DNA of 64,000 nucleotides from Gammaproteobacteria bacterium (GCA_050183625.1 JBFXBD010000008.1:2521-66520), one strand, 5' to 3'. Shown: positions 8,296 through 57,044, counted from the stretch's first letter. Translations and numbers: made by a program. Notes: generated from the letters alone by a model not told the origin.

Positions 8296-8727
8296 TCAGA
8301 ACTTGCCCTTGAGTATCAGGGTGGCCTTCTTGTCCTTGATGCTGACTTCCCCGGTGAGCTTGAGATCCTTGCCGACATCCAGCCCGGACTCCTTCTCGAC
8401 CAGGTCCCTGTACCACTTGTCCATGCCCTTCTGCCAGTCGGGCCAGTCCTTCTTCTCGTCCGGCACGTTGGTCTTGAGGATCCCCGATATCTGGTCTTCG
8501 ACCTTGCCGGTCCGTTCCAGGTAGGAGTTCTCCAGATCCTTTAGCGATTTGCGCACGTCGAACAGGCGCTTGCCATCCTGCGGCGTGGCGTCCTTCTTCT
8601 CCTCCAGGCAGTCGCGCTCATCGCGCAGCTTCTTGGTTTCCTCGACGGTCTTCTTCGCTTCCTGCGCCAGTGCCTTCACCTTCTTGGCGATCTCCTTCTT
8701 CGTCTCCTCGAGTAGCTTCTTGTCCAT
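8296..8727 (-). CDS. Lys/Glu-rich coiled-coil hypothetical protein (143 aa), compositionally atypical
   Basis: Clean ORF with ~55% GC against a ~70% background. Very high K/E content, no signal peptide. Convergent with lon. Confidence 0.5.
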   Translation of the reverse strand: MDKKLLEETKKEIAKKVKALAQEAKKTVEETKKLRDERDCLEEKKDATPQDGKRLFDVRKSLKDLENSYLERTGKVEDQISGILKTNVPDEKKDWPDWQKGMDKWYRDLVEKESGLDVGKDLKLTGEVSIKDKKATLILKGKF

Positions 8728-20099: not shown

Positions 20100-25660
<5,561 letters not shown>

Positions 25661-25664
<4 letters not shown>

Positions 25665-29106: not shown

Positions 29107-29422
29107 GCCGGGACGTTTTCCCACCCGGCCCGGCGGCCGCCAGCCATCGAGGCCGCCGGGCCGGGCACCCGCGCGCAACTGGGAGCGCCAGGTCACATCG
29201 AAAGGATGCACGCGGCCAAGCCGCGCACTTGTGTTCATGGATGCACCGGTGCGTACAATGGTCCGGACGCGACGAGACGGGCCCATGCCCCGCGACGGCG
29301 CGCGAAATCAAGCAGCCTCACCCGTGGCGGCGCCCCGATCGGACGCCGGCGGGCGCGTCGACCGCGCGAACGTTCCACGCCGGCGCGCACAGGCAGGACG
29401 CTCAATCGATGGGGGCAATCCA

Positions 29423-30733
29423 ATGAAGAAGAATGCGGCGCCGCAGTTGTCTTCGAGCTGGTGGAAGTCCAATCGGCCCGAAGATGTCGCCAGCGCGGAT
29501 GATCTCGACAAGGCACTGACGGCGTACGAGAAGGCGCTGGCGTCTTTCGCGAAGGCGCAGAGCACGCAGTCTCTGGCCGGCCTGGGCGAGGCGCTCGCCG
29601 GCGTCGAGGCGGCTGCCGAAAAGGTGGTCGCAGAGTGCGAGAAGGCGCTCAAAGGCAGGAAGACCAAGGTCGACGCGGAAGATGCGCAGAACACCGTCGA
29701 TGCGTTGAAGAAACTCGACAAGGTGATCGCCGCGGCGCGCAAGGACGCTGCCGGCAAGGTGAAGGAAGACGACGAGGGCGAGGAGGAGGATGCCGAAGCC
29801 GATGGCCTGCTGAACCAGGAGGAGCGGTACGGCAAGTACCTGCGCCAGGTCATGCGCAAGCTGAAGAATGCACCCATGGCCTTCGGCCTTGCCCTGGGCA
29901 AGAAGCCCGAACAGCACCGCATGCTGTTTCACAAGTCGAAGCAGGGCGAGGCGCTGGCGACCGTCGTCAAGAAGGAGACGAAGCTGACGGCCGTGACGTT
30001 CGGCGTGGCGGGCGGGCACGTGGAGCGGCCGAACGTGCTGGTGCTGAACCTGGACGGGCGGCAATTGCCGGGGCTCGGCAAGAAGTCCAGGGACTTCCTG
30101 AAGTACTTCAAGCCACTGCCCTTCGAGAGCGTCATGCTGATGAGCGGCGGCAAGGAGGTCGAGGACCTCCCGGACGTCGAGGAGGAGGACGCGGATGTCC
30201 CCGCGTCGCGCGTCTCCGAAGCCGACTTCGCGGCGCGGCTGAAGGCGCTGAAGCCACGGATCGACGCGGCGATCGCCGCGAAGGGACCGGTCGCGGACGA
30301 GGTGAAGCGTATCGCGGGCGAAGCCGCACTCCTCGGCCGCAAGAAGCAGTATGACGAAGCCTCGGTGCTGTTCGACGAGATCGACAAGCTGCTCGGAGCT
30401 TCCGGGGCGACCCCGGGCAAGGACCCCGCCGTGGGCGTCAGGCAGGCACTTTCGGCCTGGGATGCCGCGCGATCGAAGGTCGTCGCAACGTTGAAGGAAC
30501 TCGCGAAGGAGGTCGCGGCGGCCAAGCACCCGGAATCCAGGAACGCGTTGCTCGAATTGAACGCGGTGATGAAGCAACTGGCCGGGAACCCCGACACGGA
30601 GCAGAAGATCGCCGACATGGCGCGCTACCTGGAACAGGACGACGTCGTCGCGGACGTCTGCATGATGGCGCAGGACGTGCGCGCGCCGCTGATGCAGGCG
30701 CTGAACGAAATCAAGGCCAGGCTCGCCGCCTGA
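29423..30733 (+). CDS. hypothetical 437-aa Lys/Glu/Ala-rich alpha-helical protein (unknown function)
   Basis: ATG at 29423 after a GGGGG RBS. Clean ORF, lower GC than flanks. Amphipathic helical N-terminus, acidic D/E runs, central short beta-like segment (TFGVAGGHVERPNVLVLNLDG). No signal peptide. The 28766 upstream extension is spurious. Confidence 0.6.
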   Translation: MKKNAAPQLSSSWWKSNRPEDVASADDLDKALTAYEKALASFAKAQSTQSLAGLGEALAGVEAAAEKVVAECEKALKGRKTKVDAEDAQNTVDALKKLDKVIAAARKDAAGKVKEDDEGEEEDAEADGLLNQEERYGKYLRQVMRKLKNAPMAFGLALGKKPEQHRMLFHKSKQGEALATVVKKETKLTAVTFGVAGGHVERPNVLVLNLDGRQLPGLGKKSRDFLKYFKPLPFESVMLMSGGKEVEDLPDVEEEDADVPASRVSEADFAARLKALKPRIDAAIAAKGPVADEVKRIAGEAALLGRKKQYDEASVLFDEIDKLLGASGATPGKDPAVGVRQALSAWDAARSKVVATLKELAKEVAAAKHPESRNALLELNAVMKQLAGNPDTEQKIADMARYLEQDDVVADVCMMAQDVRAPLMQALNEIKARLAA

Positions 30734-30792
30734 CGCACGATGCGGGCCCGGCCGCCGGCCCGCTTCACCAGCAATGGATCGAGGGAACGCTC

Positions 30793-33591
30793 ATGGCCAG
30801 TAACAATCCCGTACCCAAGTCGAAGTTCGGCGTCGTCTTCCAGTACGCGCAGAGCGTGAAGTCCGGCGTGATCAGTGCGACTTCGATGGTGGTCGATTCC
30901 AACATCGCGCGCACGAACTGGCGCCAGGGGCTCAAGCTCAAGAACGTCCCGCACCCGGAGACGGACCTCGCCATCCTGCCGCCGGACTCGAAGACCCTGG
31001 CGAATTACCAGAACGCCAAGCGTGACTACGACGGCATCGATGCGACGCTGAGCGACATGGCGACCTCGAAATGGGAAAAGTTCGAGAAGGATCAGAAGAG
31101 CGCCGAGGCCGCGGTGGCGAACTTCGACCAGGCCATCGAGAACGCGCAGAAGGACATCGAGGCCGAGGTGGTCAGGCGCAGCAAGCTCCCGAACGAAATC
31201 CGCGCCAAGGTGACGCCCCCGCCTTCCGAGAGCGATGTCGCGCTGATCGCCAAGGAAGCCCCCGAACCCGGCGCGGTCTCCAAGGCCAGGGAGGAACTCG
31301 ACAGGCAACTGAAGGCGTTGATCAACGGCAGGGGCGACCCTCACGGGGCGTACGCGGTACTTGAAAAGAGCGCGCACCTGGCGGCCGGGGAGGCCGGAAA
31401 GGCGGTCGAAGCCCTCGCAAAGGCCGTGGAAACTGAAAAGGAGCGCCGCGCGAAAGCGGTCGAGGATCTGGAAGCGAAGCGTCCAGGCCTGCCGACCGGG
31501 GAGCAACTGGCCCTGCTTCCGGCGGACGACAAGGCCGGGGAGGCGTATTCCGGAGCGGGTGACACTGCCAGGAAGGCGATGCAGTCCCTGAACGATGCCC
31601 TGGCCAGGCCGTCGGACGAGTTCGCGAAGGCGCAGAAGACCGCGGCCAAGGCCGTCGAGGACCTGTCCGATGCCGTGTCCAAGGTCAACGATGCGATCCT
31701 GGTCGAAACGAAGCGCCGCCAGGAGAACACGCAATCGGTCCAGAACGACGCGCCGAAGAGCCGGGAACTTCCCGAAGGCGGTGGCATGCTCCCGGGCGAC
31801 CACAAGGCGGTCGCGGCTTTCGGAAGTGGGAATGAAGCGCTGAAGAAGGCCCTGGACGGGCTGGAGAAGTCCGCGAACGCCTCCTACGAGGACTACGAGT
31901 CCGCGTCGCAACTGGCGAAGGAATCGTTGAAGACCTGGAAGTCCAACGCCGATGCGGTCTTGAAGGCGGTGCAGACGGAAACCGATCGACGGCAGTCGGC
32001 GAGGAAGGGCGTGCTCGTTTCGTTCGACGTGGCGGAAACGAACGCTTCCGTGACCAGGAACGTCAAGCTCAAGGAAAGGTACACCACCGCGAAGGAGGGC
32101 TACCAGAAGGCGCTGGATGGGTTGGACCTGAAGATGAACGGCCCGGCGGCGGACTTCGAGGACGCATTCGGGCTGGCGCAGGGAGCGCACAAGAAGATCC
32201 AGCAGGAAATGTCGTCCCTCGCGGGTTCGGTGAAGGAACAGCTTGCCAAGGAGCGCAAGGAGCGTCGCGCGGCCCTCGACCCTGTGGAGAAGGCGCCATC
32301 GCAGCCCGAAGTCAGCCTGCTCGACGCGAACGACGAACGCCGCAAAGGCTACGAACGCCTGGTGACGGAGCACGGCCGCCAGGTGACGGCCTACGACAAG
32401 CTGCTGAAGAACGACCAGGCGAAGGAGGACGAGCTCAAGATTGCCGAGAACGCGGCGCTCGATTCGCGCAAGAACCTGGACGAGGCCTGCCTCGCCCTCA
32501 AGCAGGCGATCGCAGACGAGAAATCGAACCGGAAGGAGGTCTACGAGGAGCTTTCGGCGAAGATCGATCTGCCGGTCGAGGATGGTCTCGCGCTGCTACC
32601 CAAGGAGGATCAGGAGCGGTATCGCAAGGCATTGTCGGTTCACCAGAAGGGGCTGGCCGATCTGCAGAAGGTTGCGGACAGCGCTTCGGCGCAGTACCGG
32701 AAGGTCGAAGCGACGGCGCGGGAGGCCCGGAAAGCCCTGGTTTCCACGGTGAGCGACGTGGGCGAAAAGGCCAACTCGAAGTGGCTGGAGGCACTGCCCC
32801 GGTTCGTCGAGGAACTGGACGGCAAGCTGGAAGCCCTCAAGTCGGGCCTGCAGAAGATGGGCCACCGCAACGCGGATCATTACGGCAAGGTCGTGGACCA
32901 GGAGCGGGAACGGCTCAGGAACACCGACAACTACAAGTCCGTCCGCATCCAGTTCGAGAGATCGTTGCGGGATGTGCTGCAGCAGATGGAACTGGATCTC
33001 AAGGACGGGAAAATTGGGGTGGCGGCCCTCTCGGTGGAGAAGGTGCGGGCGAAGGAGGCCTATCCGAACATCGTCAAGTCGCAGGCGGTCGTCGTGGAGA
33101 AGATGATGTCGGATCTCAAGGGAGCCGTGCCGACCAGCATCGAGGACATCGAGAAGCTGCGCGTGGACTGCAACAGGAAGCTGGCGGACCTGGCCAAGGA
33201 CGTATTCGGCGCCACCGGGCAGAAGCTGCGTCCGCGCAGCTGGGTGGCGACGGCGGGCGCGACCGCCGGCAGGATGATGCCCACGGCGATGAAGCGCATC
33301 TCGCAGGCGCAGATCGACGAATCGGAACGCGTGTTCCGCGGCGCGGGCGCCAAGGAGAGAACCAGCCCGCGCCGCGGCTGGACCCACATCCACATCGGCG
33401 GCGACTACTCGGACAACCTGCTCCTGCACACCGGGACCAACATCGTCGTCGGCTTCCTCGGCCACATGAGCACCGCCTCGAAGGACAAGGAAAACGTCGC
33501 CGCGAGCGAAAAGCTGATGGACGACTTCGTGGAGGGAAATGCCGTGGCGGTCGCGATCCTGGGGCGGGACCTCTACGAGATCGAGGATTGA
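30793..33591 (+). CDS. hypothetical 932-aa alpha-helical repeat protein with distinct C-terminal ~110-aa domain (WTHIHIGGDYSDNLLLHTGTNIVVGFLGHM)
   Basis: ATG at 30793 preceded by GAGGGAA. Long uninterrupted ORF, reduced GC (~60%). Repetitive KA(V/L)E.L helical segments. Ser/Lys-rich non-acidic N-terminal ~35 aa. Confidence 0.65.
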   Translation: MASNNPVPKSKFGVVFQYAQSVKSGVISATSMVVDSNIARTNWRQGLKLKNVPHPETDLAILPPDSKTLANYQNAKRDYDGIDATLSDMATSKWEKFEKDQKSAEAAVANFDQAIENAQKDIEAEVVRRSKLPNEIRAKVTPPPSESDVALIAKEAPEPGAVSKAREELDRQLKALINGRGDPHGAYAVLEKSAHLAAGEAGKAVEALAKAVETEKERRAKAVEDLEAKRPGLPTGEQLALLPADDKAGEAYSGAGDTARKAMQSLNDALARPSDEFAKAQKTAAKAVEDLSDAVSKVNDAILVETKRRQENTQSVQNDAPKSRELPEGGGMLPGDHKAVAAFGSGNEALKKALDGLEKSANASYEDYESASQLAKESLKTWKSNADAVLKAVQTETDRRQSARKGVLVSFDVAETNASVTRNVKLKERYTTAKEGYQKALDGLDLKMNGPAADFEDAFGLAQGAHKKIQQEMSSLAGSVKEQLAKERKERRAALDPVEKAPSQPEVSLLDANDERRKGYERLVTEHGRQVTAYDKLLKNDQAKEDELKIAENAALDSRKNLDEACLALKQAIADEKSNRKEVYEELSAKIDLPVEDGLALLPKEDQERYRKALSVHQKGLADLQKVADSASAQYRKVEATAREARKALVSTVSDVGEKANSKWLEALPRFVEELDGKLEALKSGLQKMGHRNADHYGKVVDQERERLRNTDNYKSVRIQFERSLRDVLQQMELDLKDGKIGVAALSVEKVRAKEAYPNIVKSQAVVVEKMMSDLKGAVPTSIEDIEKLRVDCNRKLADLAKDVFGATGQKLRPRSWVATAGATAGRMMPTAMKRISQAQIDESERVFRGAGAKERTSPRRGWTHIHIGGDYSDNLLLHTGTNIVVGFLGHMSTASKDKENVAASEKLMDDFVEGNAVAVAILGRDLYEIED

Positions 33592-33758
33592 CGCCGGGAG
33601 TACCGCATCGCGATCCCGGCGTTCATCCGAGGCCACGGGCGTCGTCGAGGCGCGGCTCGGGGAGGCGGGCTTGGGCGGGGCACCGGCACCGGGCTGCCGT
33701 AGGTCATTGGGGTGTCGCCAGTAGCCTAGTGGTTCGGGGATGGCCGGACCCTTTTCCG

Positions 33759-34316
33759 ATGTTCCAACCCCTGGATGATTGCGGCTTCAGCCTGCCCCAT
33801 GCGGCCCTGTACGCCCAAATGACCCGGTGGTACCGTTTCCAGCCGGATGCCGTCCGGGTACACGCGAAGGATCGCGACGGCAGTACGCGGGTTGGCGTTG
33901 ATGGCGACATTCGCTACGAAGAGCCGATGCTGCTTGATCCAGTCGACGAAGACGATCCGGTCTTGCTCTTCTTTGACCTCGAAGGTCACGCAGTTGCGGC
34001 GCCACACGTCAACGAAGCCTGGGGGGCGACTCGCGTCCAGTATTCGGTCGATCGCTGCAACCTGGACTTCCCGCCACTCATGGACAAATGGAAAGCGGTC
34101 TGGGCAGAGTGCTGTAATCGTGTGACGGAGTACCGGCGGGAGCTTGGTTCGTACCAAAGGGACCCAACCAACGCCGTCGCGCGGGACCGCGTCAAGCAAG
34201 CCGCGAAGCGCGTGCGGCCGATGCTCCGGGAGGAACAGGATCTGTCTTCGATGGCCCGCGCATGCGTTGAGAGTGCCGGAGATCCATGCGTCGGCGGGTT
34301 TCCGCGGTCCGTATGA
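33759..34316 (+). CDS. hypothetical small protein (185 aa) downstream of the 932-aa gene
   Basis: Co-directional with flanking genes and ends 5 nt before the next gene's start. An ORF of similar length (33726..34337) is also open on the opposite strand, so strand assignment is uncertain. Confidence 0.35.
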   Translation: MFQPLDDCGFSLPHAALYAQMTRWYRFQPDAVRVHAKDRDGSTRVGVDGDIRYEEPMLLDPVDEDDPVLLFFDLEGHAVAAPHVNEAWGATRVQYSVDRCNLDFPPLMDKWKAVWAECCNRVTEYRRELGSYQRDPTNAVARDRVKQAAKRVRPMLREEQDLSSMARACVESAGDPCVGGFPRSV

Positions 34317-34321
34317 AGGCG

Positions 34322-35796
34322 CGGTCGAATTGATCACTCTTGCTACCCTTCAGTCGCTCGCTGCCCGCGGCGAGTCCGAGTCGCTCGAGTTCAAGCGCTC
34401 GACCGCCGAGCTGAAGCGCGCCGGGGAAACGCTCTGCGCGCTCCTGAACGGCGAGGGTGGCAAGGTGCTGATCGGGATCGGCCCCGACTGCAAGATCGTC
34501 GGCCAGGAGGTGTCAGACTCCACCCTCCGCGACATCGCGGCGATGCTCGGCCGCTTCGAGCCGCCCGCGCGCGTCGAGATGAGCCGCGTGGACATCGGGA
34601 ATCGCCGGCGGGTGATTGTGCTCGAGGCCGCTCCGTCCCGGCAGTTCGCACCATTCGTTTTCGAATCGAGGCCATACAAGCGCGTGGGCTCTACCACCAC
34701 GGTGATGTCGCAGGAGGAGTCCGCGCGCCTGCTTCTCGACCGCAATCACAGCCGGCACCGCTGAGAGAACCAACCGGCCGCGGGCGTGCGTCTCGAAGAT
34801 CTGGACCGCGAGGAGATCCTGCGCACGCGCGCCACCGCCATCGAGCAGCGGCGCCTCTCGGCCGGCACGAGCATGGACGTGGGCGACATCCTCGATCGGC
34901 TCGGCCTGCGAATGGACGGGCAGGTCACACAGGCCGCGCAGATGCTCTACGGGACGAAGTTCCTGCCCGACTACCCGCAGGCACTGCTCAAGCTCGGCCG
35001 CTTCCGGGGCAAGAAGATCACCGGCGATATCCTCGACAGCAAGCAGGAGTACCTGCACGCGTTCGCGATGGTCCGAGAGGCGATCGCCTGGCTCGACCGG
35101 ACGTTGCCGCTGTCTGCGCGCTTCCCGAAGGGCGCCGTCAACCGGGAGGATCGGTTGCCGGTGCCGGCGGAGGCGCTGCGAGAGATTGTCATCAACGCCG
35201 TCATCCACCGCGACGTGAGCAACCCGAGCTCGTACGTTGCAATCGCGGTGTTCGACGATCGCATCGAGATCCACAGCATTGGCGCGTTTCCGACCGGTAT
35301 TCGCGCCGAGCTGCTCGCGCGGGAGCACCGCTCGATCCCGCGCAACCCGCTCATTGCCGGCGCCTTCCATCGCACGGGCGCTATCGAGATCTGGGGCCGG
35401 GGTACGAATCGGGTCATCGAGGCGTGCCGCGCGTACGGCATCGCGGACCCGACGTTCACCGAGGCTTCGGGGGCCGTGACGGTGACGTTCAGGGCCGAGG
35501 TCCTGGCGGGGGCACGGGACATGGGGCCGGGTGGGCACCAAGTAGGCACCAAGTCGGCACTAAGTCAGTACCAAGTTCAAGTGCTTGAACTATCGGTTCT
35601 TCCTCGCGCACTGGCGGAACTCATGGGTCCCTCGGGACGATCCGATCGAACCAAGTTTCGGGACCAAGTTCTGCGCCCGCTGATCGAGGCAGGACTACTC
35701 GAAATGACCATCCCCGACAAACCGCGAAGCTCGAAGCAGCGGTATCGCATCACAGACGCCGGGCGTGAAATGTTGGTCGCCGCGAGCGGCAGTTGA
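34322..35796 (+). pseudogene. AlbA_2 (Schlafen-like) + HATPase_c_4 + wHTH 'RecG-like' putative regulator, interrupted by an in-frame TGA at 34762-34764
   Basis: N-terminal GESESLEFKRS (AlbA_2 hallmark). The downstream ORF is in the same frame (34144 and 34786 both frame 1), separated only by TGA + 7 codons. Combined length ~491 aa fits the family. TTG/GTG start uncertain. Confidence 0.5.
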
Positions 35797-55357: not shown

Positions 55358-56272
55358 GTGAAGAGCCATCAATTCGGCGGTAGCTGGACTGATACGAAGC
55401 TCGAAATCCTGAGGCAGTACCTGATTCCGTATCGCCAGATCTTTACGACATCCGCGAAAGCGAAACACTTCAAGACCATATATATAGATGCGTTTGCCGG
55501 AACGGGCGAGAGGGTGGATCCAAATCTCAGTCCCGATGTGGCGGATCTCATCGGAGATACTGACCCGAGTGAGCGCGACGCTTACAAGAAGGGTAGCGCG
55601 CGAATTGCGCTTGAAGTCACCCCTCCGTTCGATCGCTACGTTTTTGTCGAGAAGCAGCCAGAGAGAAGCGCCGAACTGCGCGTGATGGTGCGCTCTGAAT
55701 TCCCGAATCTGGTACCACGTTGCAATATCGTGCAAGGCGACGCAAACGGATACCTGCAAGAGAATCTACCGCGCGTCGATTGGGATAATTGGCGCGCGGT
55801 ACTGTTTCTCGACCCGTATGGCATGGCCGTCGAATGGGAGACTATCAAGATCATCGCGGAAACAAGAGCGATTGATCTTTGGGTGCTTTTTCCGGTCGGC
55901 CAAGGCGTCAATCGGCTTTTGACTCGCGCCTCTACTCCGCCGCCGGAATGGGAGGCGCGCTTGACCAGGATGTTCGGCACGGAAGAATGGAAGGCACGGT
56001 TCTATGCGCCTTCACGACAACAGGACATCTTCGGCGATACCCCAGGGATGTTGAAGGACACGAGCTTTGACCTTATCGGAGAGTATTTTCTGGAGCGGCT
56101 CCGCGCAACGTTTGCGGGCGTCGCGCCGCACGCGGCGAAGCTCGAGAATTCGCGCAACGTTCCGCTGTATTGGTTGTGCTTCGCCGCGGGGAACCCACGA
56201 GGGGCCGGGATCGCGGTGAAAATCGCAAACCACTTGCTAGGTCAGCAGGCGCGTCAACGACGCAAGAAGTAG
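55358..56272 (+). CDS. tcmP: three-Cys-motif partner protein TcmP
   Basis: GTG start after GGAG. N-terminus HQFGGSWTDTKLEILRQYLIPY matches the TcmP family. Sits in a low-GC islet. Confidence 0.75.
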   Translation: MKSHQFGGSWTDTKLEILRQYLIPYRQIFTTSAKAKHFKTIYIDAFAGTGERVDPNLSPDVADLIGDTDPSERDAYKKGSARIALEVTPPFDRYVFVEKQPERSAELRVMVRSEFPNLVPRCNIVQGDANGYLQENLPRVDWDNWRAVLFLDPYGMAVEWETIKIIAETRAIDLWVLFPVGQGVNRLLTRASTPPPEWEARLTRMFGTEEWKARFYAPSRQQDIFGDTPGMLKDTSFDLIGEYFLERLRATFAGVAPHAAKLENSRNVPLYWLCFAAGNPRGAGIAVKIANHLLGQQARQRRKK

Positions 56273-56288
56273 AGCGAGGGATTGGACC

Positions 56289-57044
56289 ATGGCGACGAGA
56301 ACGTCCATAGAATGGACTGAAATGACGTGGAATCCGGTGACGGGGTGCACGAAGATCAGCCAGGGCTGCAAGCACTGCTATGCGGAGCGAATGGCCAATA
56401 GACTGAAGGCGATGGGAGCTGAACGTTACGTGCGTGGGTTTAGGCTCAGCATCCATGAGGATTTAATGGATATGCCTAGGCGCTGGCGGCGGCCGCGTCT
56501 GGTTTTCGTCAATTCCATGAGCGATCTATTTCAAGATGGGGTTCCGGACGTCGTCATCGACCGCGTGTTTTCGACTATGGCAGCATGCCCCCAGCATACG
56601 TTCCAGGTGCTGACCAAGCGATCCGAACGCCTGATGGCGTTGAGCGGCAGGTTGCCCTGGCCGGAAAACGTCTGGATGGGCGTGAGCGTGGAGAGCCGTG
56701 ACCATTTGGATAGGATCGACCACTTGGCACGCGTGCCGGCCTCCGTGAGATTCCTGTCCTGCGAGCCGCTACTAGGGCCGCTCGAAAACCTGCCATTGGA
56801 TGGGATCCATTGGGTCATCGTCGGTGGAGAGTCCGGCCCGAAAGCGCGACCGATGCAAGGCGAATGGGTGGAATCCGTTCGGAAACAATGTGCCGAAGAC
56901 AACGTCGCTTTTTTCTTTAAGCAATGGGGTGGTGTAAGAAAAAGCCGTACCGGACGAAGTCTCAATGGGGTGACATACGATCAGATGCCGGTCCGAGCTG
57001 TGCCGGACCACCGACGGTCCGAAGCGCGTCCAGAGATGGGTTAA
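56289..57044 (+). CDS. phage Gp37/Gp68-family protein (DUF5131, three-Cys-motif protein), partner of TcmP
   Basis: N-terminal SIEWTEMTWNPVTGCTKISQGCKHCYAE, the CxxxxxxCxxC motif with IEWT/TWNP signature of DUF5131. 251 aa. Confidence 0.85.
   Translation: MATRTSIEWTEMTWNPVTGCTKISQGCKHCYAERMANRLKAMGAERYVRGFRLSIHEDLMDMPRRWRRPRLVFVNSMSDLFQDGVPDVVIDRVFSTMAACPQHTFQVLTKRSERLMALSGRLPWPENVWMGVSVESRDHLDRIDHLARVPASVRFLSCEPLLGPLENLPLDGIHWVIVGGESGPKARPMQGEWVESVRKQCAEDNVAFFFKQWGGVRKSRTGRSLNGVTYDQMPVRAVPDHRRSEARPEMG

Follow-up and report, generated by a model that had tools for sequence, protein, structure and literature searches.

Here we describe a conserved two-gene cassette in a 64,000-nucleotide stretch of DNA from a Gammaproteobacteria bacterium (GCA_050183625.1, JBFXBD010000008.1:2521-66520; the whole stretch is hereafter called the window). 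Its second gene, B, encodes a protein of 932 amino acids (aa) composed of a helical-repeat body and a separate C-terminal domain (the head) with invariant His, Asp and Asn residues, a modular layout that a preliminary description of this DNA had proposed and that our analysis supports. Its first gene, A, encodes a partner of 436 aa. Both sequence families appear to be new, placed nowhere by profile or fold searches, and the overall layout, with a rod, a small head and a linked partner, is familiar among effectors and toxins. At present A and B are a pair of hypothetical proteins, and all that we say of their function is inference. As a possible explanation, advanced tentatively, they would form an accessory, sporadic two-protein conflict module, in which B is a rod with a metal-binding, probably catalytic head and A its dedicated partner. 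The features of both genes are as follows.

30793 to 33591, plus strand: gene B, a soluble protein of 932 aa, identified as an open reading frame (ORF) with a coding signature
30781 to 30786, plus strand: ribosome-binding site GAGGGA of gene B, 6-7 nt before the ATG, read from the sequence
30793 to 30912, plus strand: B residues 1-40, N-terminal peptide with the family-conserved motifs P-x-[SA]-x-F-G-x-V and [AQ]R..W...L, a low-confidence helix
30913 to 32802, plus strand: B residues 41-670, seven tandem helical units of ~90 aa, from periodicity, unit alignment, a unit hidden Markov model (HMM) and AlphaFold2
32803 to 33357, plus strand: B residues 671-855, helical connector and then a poorly modelled linker, from alignment and AlphaFold2
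33358 to 33588, plus strand: B residues 856-932, β-rich core of the head (β-β-β-α-β-β), from alignments, His statistics, blastp to the relative P0004 and two models
29423 to 30733, plus strand: partner gene A, 436 aa, called on the Logan contig, with GC at the three codon positions (GC1/2/3) of 0.68/0.40/0.88

Gene B is a real gene. Because the window, at ~70% GC, is full of spurious ORFs, we used GC by codon position to tell genes from artefacts, taking as a reference 13 window genes with Pfam domains (mean GC1/2/3 0.70/0.47/0.89; GC3 0.893±0.033). The values for B (0.65/0.40/0.87) match the coding signature of the window and are gene-like; a ribosome-binding site precedes the ORF and, in the family alignment, the three homologues of B align from their own Met1. 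These three observations establish the gene, and its translation is the sequence quoted in the preliminary description. The protein has neither a signal peptide nor a transmembrane segment (maximum Kyte-Doolittle average over 19 residues, 0.99), its net charge is near-neutral, and it is present in databases as hypothetical protein MGE0384042.1, a singleton cluster.

The body of B is a repeat array. Self-similarity over residues 41-780 (BLOSUM62) peaks at offsets of 87 aa (z 6.6), 90 aa (z 6.5) and 180 aa (z 5.5), while the 99th percentile of the per-shuffle maximum z in the shuffle control is 4.0. The seven units (residues 41-129, 131-219, 220-309, 313-400, 401-491, 493-580 and 582-670) have a common pattern: a P-rich linker, (L)A(L)LP..D, Y..A.....KAL..L, [DE][FYW]..A...A..A and E..RR. 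We built a full-length AlphaFold2 model on a 4-sequence alignment, and it is usable for the repeats only; in it each unit consists of a short helix, a ~25-aa helix and a ~45-aa helix, with predicted local distance difference test scores (pLDDT) of 80-90 over residues ~50-580 and of 38-65 in unit 7. The helical repeats noticed earlier are therefore real, well beyond chance, but they extend over ~630 aa and not ~750, and are followed by ~135 aa of non-repeat helix. The N-terminal peptide (residues 1-40), possibly a docking or partner-binding peptide, has pLDDT values of 34-50, and in the connector the non-repeat helix (residues 671-805) gives way to a poorly modelled stretch (residues 806-855).

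The family of B is extremely small. An exhaustive HMMER scan of 1.84 billion representatives returned three relatives:

P0002: 853 aa, relative of B at E 1e-49 (HMMER)
P0003: 853 aa, relative of B at E 2e-39 (HMMER)
P0004: 385 aa, relative of B at E 4e-4 (HMMER), aligned only to B residues 694-930

All four members of the family are singleton clusters among ~15 billion proteins. An HMM made from the seven units of the window protein finds ~6 units each in P0002 and P0003 (E 1e-24 and 3e-28), and in the family alignment the units stand in positional register: compared with the window protein, P0002 is without unit 7 and P0003 without unit 2. Repeats have therefore been gained or lost as whole units, which fits a spacer or rod. 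The CNRKL and GRMMP motifs of the connector are common to the three long forms. In P0004 residues 694-855 of B find a weak alignment, and the firmly common part, as defined by blastp, is B residues 856-930 with P0004 residues 309-384 (E 1e-10); the first ~300 aa of P0004 have no BLAST similarity to B and no repeat array. All four proteins thus have the same C-terminal core, and variation lies in the N-terminal region (P0004) and in the number of repeats.

Searches beyond this family returned nothing that would name either protein. Neither A nor B matches Pfam (whole B scanned at E ≤ 0.1, without any Spectrin match), NCBIfam (for A, the query was a longer, 655-aa ORF containing the gene), PADLOC or PHROG, and Pfam gave nothing on their homologues. 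Searches of the PDB with the sequence of B, its repeat profile and its C-terminal profile yielded chance-level matches only. A word-seeded search of 5.8 billion clusters retrieved B alone when queried with the full protein or with the 4-sequence profile, and nothing with the C-terminal 243 aa. Its negative results weigh little for this family, since the C-terminal query missed its own parent and the 4-sequence alignment missed three of its own members. Scans of species-representative genomes, JGI metagenomes and viral contigs, each performed twice, gave no confirmed relatives of B, and tblastn of the B family against phage and plasmid collections gave no match. Orphan families without a name are common in metagenomes. 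Foldseek with the full-length model placed vinculin, α-catenin and talin first, none of them significant (E ≥ 1e-3, TM ~0.1), and against BFVD the best viral neighbours were tape-measure and minor tail proteins, all at TM ~0.1, a generic long-helix similarity.

Conservation in B is concentrated in the head. Of the 25 columns that are invariant across the four family members, 10 fall in the last 77 residues of B: R856, H865, H867, G870, D871, N875, G887, G890, H891 and Y928, arranged in the motif R-x8-H-x-H-[IV]-x-G-D-x3-N ... G-[FY]-x(1,2)-G-H ... Y. The only conserved His among the 13 of B are the three in the head. Its His-x-His is present in 4/4 members and is the sole His-x-His of the protein in 3/4, P0002 having a second one elsewhere. 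The preliminary description had pointed to a separate C-terminal domain of ~110 aa with conserved His and Asp. The domain is indeed discrete, with a switch from all-helix to β and recurrence in the 385-aa protein, where it sits on another N-terminus, but its core is smaller, at ~77 aa (856-932). The His and Asp, and an Asn as well, do not vary across the family, a pattern that fits a site for metal binding or catalysis. As for its structure, both the full-length and the cropped model pass at the head from all-helix to β-β-β-α-β-β; their confidence is low (pLDDT ~49-55; mean of 49 for the cropped C-terminus).

An invariant set of three His, Asp, Asn, Arg, Tyr and three Gly is of the kind seen in metal-dependent active sites, and these residues of the head most likely make up a site that binds metal and is probably catalytic. 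Because the models are of low confidence and the fold searches empty, we read this site from the identity of the residues alone. The head has no Pfam match even at E ≤ 10 in a permissive scan of each member and no PDB profile match, and Foldseek with the cropped model against PDB and BFVD returned only generic or insignificant matches. A motif scan found no HNH-type HH or HExxH motif in B, and no PAAR or MIX core motif in the A or B families. In HNH/ββα-Me nucleases the catalytic His, usually within HH or DH, lies on a β-hairpin; an Asn comes after it, and the next helix supplies a His or Asn that binds the metal. The order of the head (His-x-His ... Asn ... Gly-His, then a helix) is loosely compatible with this arrangement, but the adjacent HH is absent, there is no Pfam or PDB profile match, and the model is poor. 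An HNH/ββα-Me identity lacks support from profile matches, spacing or domain size. The same holds for further signatures that we considered and dropped: that of Cu/Zn superoxide dismutase (G-F-H-V-H-x-x-G-D), the HIT triad, cupin motif 1, the M23/LAS pattern HxxxD...HxH and the first motif of PHP/amidohydrolases.

We then turn to the gene upstream of B, which had been described as a 437-aa protein that might be a paralogue or partner of B. It encodes 436 aa, with a net charge of about -3, and is laid out as an N-terminal helical region, an acidic linker, a ~110-aa α/β central domain (~136-239), a second acidic linker and a conserved C-terminal helical domain (~267-436). Upstream of both P0002 and P0003, on their strand and 13-23 bp away, lies an unannotated gene (425 and 539 aa respectively). 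These genes are homologous to each other and to the A of the window (E 7e-52, 2e-37 and 2e-6, the last two for the window A with the genes of P0002 and P0003 respectively). A is hence directly 5' of B at 3/3 long-form loci, with gaps of 13-59 bp, while the flanks differ:

Window locus: DUF2330 gene upstream, split AlbA_2 gene downstream
L002 (P0002): DsbD and AhpC genes upstream, gene for a HEAT_2 protein downstream
L003 (P0003): ABC transporter genes upstream; the contig ends after P0003

L002 and L003 are metagenomic contigs of 15-19 kb. The presence of a homologous A at all three long forms, in unrelated neighbourhoods, demonstrates that A and B are a conserved two-gene cassette in varied surroundings. 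The upstream gene is thus a genuine partner but not a paralogue: in hhalign, A reaches a probability of ≤0.4% against both the repeat and the C-terminus of B, and the repeat HMM does not match it. A relationship between the central domain of A and the head of B was likewise rejected by hhalign. P0004 has no A-like neighbour. At its locus (L004, 3-539 on the minus and 781-1938 on the plus strand) the divergent neighbour begins with a DUF4062 domain (E 3e-4) and is cut by the contig end.

Two palindromic elements lie around and within the cassette:

29124 to 29165, plus strand: perfect inverted repeat of 15 bp with a 12-nt spacer, 100% complementary, just past the stop of the DUF2330 gene (29106)
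30742 to 30763, plus strand: GC-rich hairpin GCGGGCC-N8-GGCCCGC in the 59-bp spacer between A and B, read from the sequence

The inverted repeat probably sets the DUF2330 gene apart from the A and B unit. The hairpin is not intrinsic-terminator-like, because no T-run follows it, and a terminator scan found no plus-strand site in the spacer between A and B or around the cassette. No Rfam family and no σ70-like promoter was found around the cassette.

A family members are also found without B. Using tblastn of A in phage and plasmid collections, we obtained a single match, in PLSDB, on a 784-kb replicon of Eleftheria terrae (E 1e-18), a species that produces teixobactin. WP_301260643.1 of this species is homologous to A (E 7e-37). 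The gene of the A homologue (406 aa) stands ~1.9 kb past the last gene of a complete, co-oriented type VI secretion cluster (tssA-B-C, 4 hcp, tssE-F-G, vgrG, DUF4123 and tssK), and the A-family genes of this genome are ~10 kb from RebB R-body genes. A second paralogue (465 aa), encoded on the opposite strand, shares 87% identity with the first in its N-terminal 243 aa but ends in a different C-terminal domain, with weak similarity (E 0.001) to the C-terminal region of the P0003 partner. Furthermore, the central domain of A occurs there as a stand-alone protein of 129 aa, 43% identical to residues 136-239 of the window protein and encoded just before six RebB genes. No known domains were found in the products of the genes that follow the A paralogues (607, 324 and 160 aa), and these genes are different and unrelated for each paralogue; we considered the proteins as divergent forms of B and rejected them, as they are unrelated to it. 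Alternative C-termini, alternative downstream genes and a stand-alone central domain therefore indicate that A is itself modular and pairs with different downstream proteins, a behaviour that, by analogy, may be that of an adaptor or of a polymorphic component. The whole block between the type VI cluster and the six RebB genes (NZ_CP106952.1, 578223-602984; L005, also L006 and L007) is unannotated and without Pfam domains.

How would such a cassette work? A and B would be co-made from a two-gene unit. B would be an elongated protein, with an N-terminal peptide, a rod of seven spectrin-like units, a helical connector and a β-rich head, in which the rod would act as a spacer or scaffold and the head as the active part. 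A would be the cognate binding partner, be it a chaperone, an adaptor or an antidote. The module may be used by one organism in conflict with another, as an effector or toxin that is delivered or as an effector of defence, and if it is exported, its context hints at type VI and not type III. A conflict function is suggested by the patchy, singleton distribution of the family, the modular reuse of the head and of A, and the Eleftheria context; four members in 1.84 billion, all of them singletons, is a pattern typical of accessory or conflict genes. The split Schlafen/AlbA_2 gene 0.6 kb downstream of B also speaks for such a function.

Several observations weigh against this conflict module. The GC3 of A and B is typical of the genome, and their composition does not point to recent transfer. 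Neither in the 64-kb window nor in the two contigs does the cassette have secretion-system, phage or recognised defence genes near it. B has no signal peptide, PAAR, MIX core, HNH-type HH or HExxH and gives nothing in PADLOC, and no conserved small gene downstream of it could serve as an immunity protein. The link to type VI comes from one genome and concerns A only, the Eleftheria genome being without a B homologue. Finally, the head models have low confidence, fold searches with them gave nothing significant, and the conserved His, Asp and Asn could equally fit a structural metal site or an oligomerisation surface.

Another view makes B a structural or scaffold protein inside the cell: a rod in the cytoplasm, similar to a cytoskeleton or polar organiser or associated with granules, which A assembles or anchors, with the head as an oligomerisation or structural metal domain. 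A soluble, near-neutral protein without signal peptide or transmembrane segment, a long array of helical bundles whose best, insignificant fold neighbours are vinculin, α-catenin and talin, housekeeping neighbours at all three cassette loci and a genome-typical GC3 all speak for it. We nevertheless consider it rather unlikely, since extreme rarity and a patchy, non-syntenic occurrence are unusual for a structural component of the cell, the invariant His-x-His, Asp, Asn and His form a cluster more reminiscent of an active or metal site, and the head is found without the rod in P0004. The same cluster of catalytic-type residues, together with the sporadic singleton distribution, would suit a two-gene anti-phage or anti-plasmid defence, in which the repeats of B serve as sensor or scaffold, its C-terminus is the effector, for instance a metal-dependent nuclease, and A has a regulatory or sensing part. 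The split AlbA_2/HATPase_c_4 gene adjacent to B, with its weak PADLOC similarity, and the DUF4062 gene that divergently adjoins P0004 point the same way. Neither A nor B, however, matches PADLOC or has an NTPase or recognisable nuclease domain; the nearby mad2, mad3 and mad8 matches are generic and lack the mandatory MAD6 and MAD7, and the other cassette loci are without defence genes, all of which makes defence an unlikely role. A more specific form of delivery is that A and B are an unrecognised class of weapon, with B as a rod-shaped effector carrying a new metal-dependent enzymatic fold and A as a modular adaptor that would link diverse cargo (B, or the 607-aa and 160-aa types of Eleftheria) to a contractile or R-body-like machine, such as type VI; we regard this as distinctly improbable.

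The preliminary description had likened the N-terminus to type III secretion signals; as a type III effector, B would have an unstructured N-terminal signal, a helical body and a C-terminal toxin domain. Type III signals are ~25 aa long, N-terminal, acid-poor, rich in Ser/Thr/Pro and not conserved in sequence. The Ser/Lys-rich, acid-free N-terminus is there (0 Asp/Glu, 6 Ser and 3 Lys in the first 34 residues), and the modular layout with a conserved C-terminal domain would agree with such an effector, but the same acid-free property is seen in 11 of 41 ORF calls of the window, a crude count in which some starts are uncertain. In the homologues this stretch contains 3-4 acidic and 3-5 Leu residues and a fixed motif instead (P-x-[SA]-x-F-G-x-V), unlike type III signals, so that the trait is locally common and not conserved. 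No type III or flagellar export genes are found in the 64 kb, no small (~15 kDa) acidic chaperone gene adjoins B, the adjacent conserved gene encoding 436 aa in several domains, and the sole secretion context found for the family is type VI. The reading of a type III signal is not supported, and a type III effector is hardly credible. The signature of polymorphic toxins is not found: B has no known trafficking domain and no toxin domain (Pfam Tox-, Ntox, PAAR, Rhs, LXG), its C-terminus is constant among the long forms, and no immunity gene is conserved downstream, the genes there, a 203-aa ORF in the window and HEAT_2 in L002, being unrelated and in convergent orientation. In the window, L002 and L003 alike, the surroundings of B lack vgrG, hcp, PAAR and adaptor genes. 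The C-terminal domain, whose two models stand at pLDDT ~49-55, may be a toxin. B could also be a ruler-like or tape-measure-like part of a contractile or tail-like machine, in which the number of repeats sets the length of the rod and the C-terminus acts at one end, tip or base. Its best viral fold neighbours are tape-measure and minor tail proteins, whole units vary in number (7 versus ~6) and A-family genes adjoin a type VI cluster; yet all these fold matches are at TM ~0.1, a generic long-helix similarity, no tail, sheath or baseplate genes lie near any B gene, and phage and viral collections hold no match, which leaves this role very improbable. The remaining probability belongs to something else.

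If the conflict reading is true, bacterial conflict systems would gain two new domain families, the His-rich head (~77 aa) and the helical repeat (~90 aa), together with a new partner family, A, as a possible cargo adaptor. A and B are in any case a piece of microbial dark matter: a conserved cassette seen no more than four or five times among ~15 billion proteins, with five candidate active-site residues, a defined partner and a varying number of repeats.

The surroundings of the cassette in the window are largely housekeeping. We scanned ~40 window genes, whose products have housekeeping or regulatory roles, among them Lon, a UvrA-like protein, CorA, Kup, a Kdp-type two-component pair, ABC transporters, a GlnS-type tRNA synthetase, DegP and MprF; none of the ~40 is a secretion-system (type III, flagellar export or other) or phage gene. 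GC content dips locally at ~29.4-35.8 kb. We rejected a horizontal-transfer island as the explanation of this dip for A and B, whose GC3 (0.87-0.88) is genome-typical; for them the dip comes from low GC2 (0.40), that is, from amino-acid composition. Neither tRNAs nor flanking repeats were found around the two genes. Just downstream, 33600-34340 has the lowest GC of the region, with overlapping ORFs of 203 aa (minus strand) and 185 aa (plus strand), a GC3 of 0.71 against a norm of 0.89, and no Pfam match. Beginning 0.6 kb downstream of B, a split gene with weak PADLOC similarity occupies 34144-35796 on the plus strand: its consecutive ORFs match Schlafen AlbA_2 (E 2e-17) and HATPase_c_4 with Fic-like_C (E 1e-21), halves of what is normally one protein of ~480 aa, and both match PHROG 12156, at profile positions 8-151 and 282-401. 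A pseudogene with a frameshift or an internal deletion is the probable explanation, or else an assembly error. Genes of this Schlafen/AlbA_2-HATPase_c_4 type are frequent in defence islands.

Elsewhere in the window, 20100-25664 (minus strand) encodes an 1853-aa, double-length UvrA-like protein with UvrA_inter, UvrA_DNA-bind and several ABC ATPase modules, which PADLOC scores as mad3/mad8 (E 4e-149), a generic ABC-ATPase similarity. MADS is an eight-gene operon, mad1-8, in which MAD6, MAD7 and MAD8 are mandatory (bioRxiv 10.1101/2023.03.30.534895). We rejected a MADS island here: the window has only the UvrA-like ABC ATPase (mad3/mad8) and a methyltransferase (mad2), on opposite strands and ~10 kb apart, MAD6 and MAD7 are lacking, and MAD8 is matched only by the UvrA-like protein, which has UvrA-specific domains. 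At 55358-57044 (plus strand) there are two adjacent genes with a GC3 of 0.65-0.67, the first of 304 aa and without Pfam match, the second a DUF5131 gene (phage Gp37/Gp68-like, E 3e-101); this pair is possibly a small foreign insertion. Finally, 8296-8727 (minus strand) encodes a 143-aa protein that is extremely rich in Lys and Glu, begins MDKKLLEETKKEIAKKVKALAQEAKK and has a GC2 of 0.28 and no Pfam match, which is odd for a genome of 70% GC.

Set beside known systems, A and B resemble several and coincide with none of them. Like the rods of spectrin, vinculin, α-catenin and talin, B has tandem all-helical units (~90-110 aa) with one long helix each in an elongated array. Unlike them, it has no sequence similarity or Pfam match to these proteins, its Pro-rich linkers carry (L)A(L)LP..D, and it is bacterial and has a dedicated partner gene. 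The spectrin repeat is a ~106-aa bundle of three helices; the unit of B, of ~90 aa, has two main helices and a short one. FliK/YscP rulers and phage tape-measure proteins share with B an elongated, length-variable body and a small C-terminal domain, and an acid-free N-terminus in the window member only. B differs from them in having no Flg_hook/T3S4 or tape-measure Pfam match, no export or tail genes nearby and only generic fold matches.

Polymorphic toxin systems, reportedly described by Zhang, Aravind and colleagues in 2012, are large and modular, as B is, with a small end domain that bears catalytic-type residues, and the reuse of this domain in P0004, the linked partner and the patchy distribution recall them as well. 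In contrast to them, B has no trafficking or pre-toxin domain (PAAR, Rhs, LXG, MIX), its C-terminus is constant, and the linked gene is upstream and encodes 425-539 aa. Pairs of a type VI effector and its adaptor (DUF4123, Eag/DUF1795, DUF2169) differ from the cassette in that no type VI genes lie near B in the window or the two contigs, A and B fall outside the known adaptor and effector families, and the Eleftheria locus is without B. They resemble it in being two-gene units where one protein might serve to load or stabilise its partner, and A, with its constant N-terminal part, alternative C-termini and alternative downstream genes, lies in Eleftheria within the tail of a type VI cluster.

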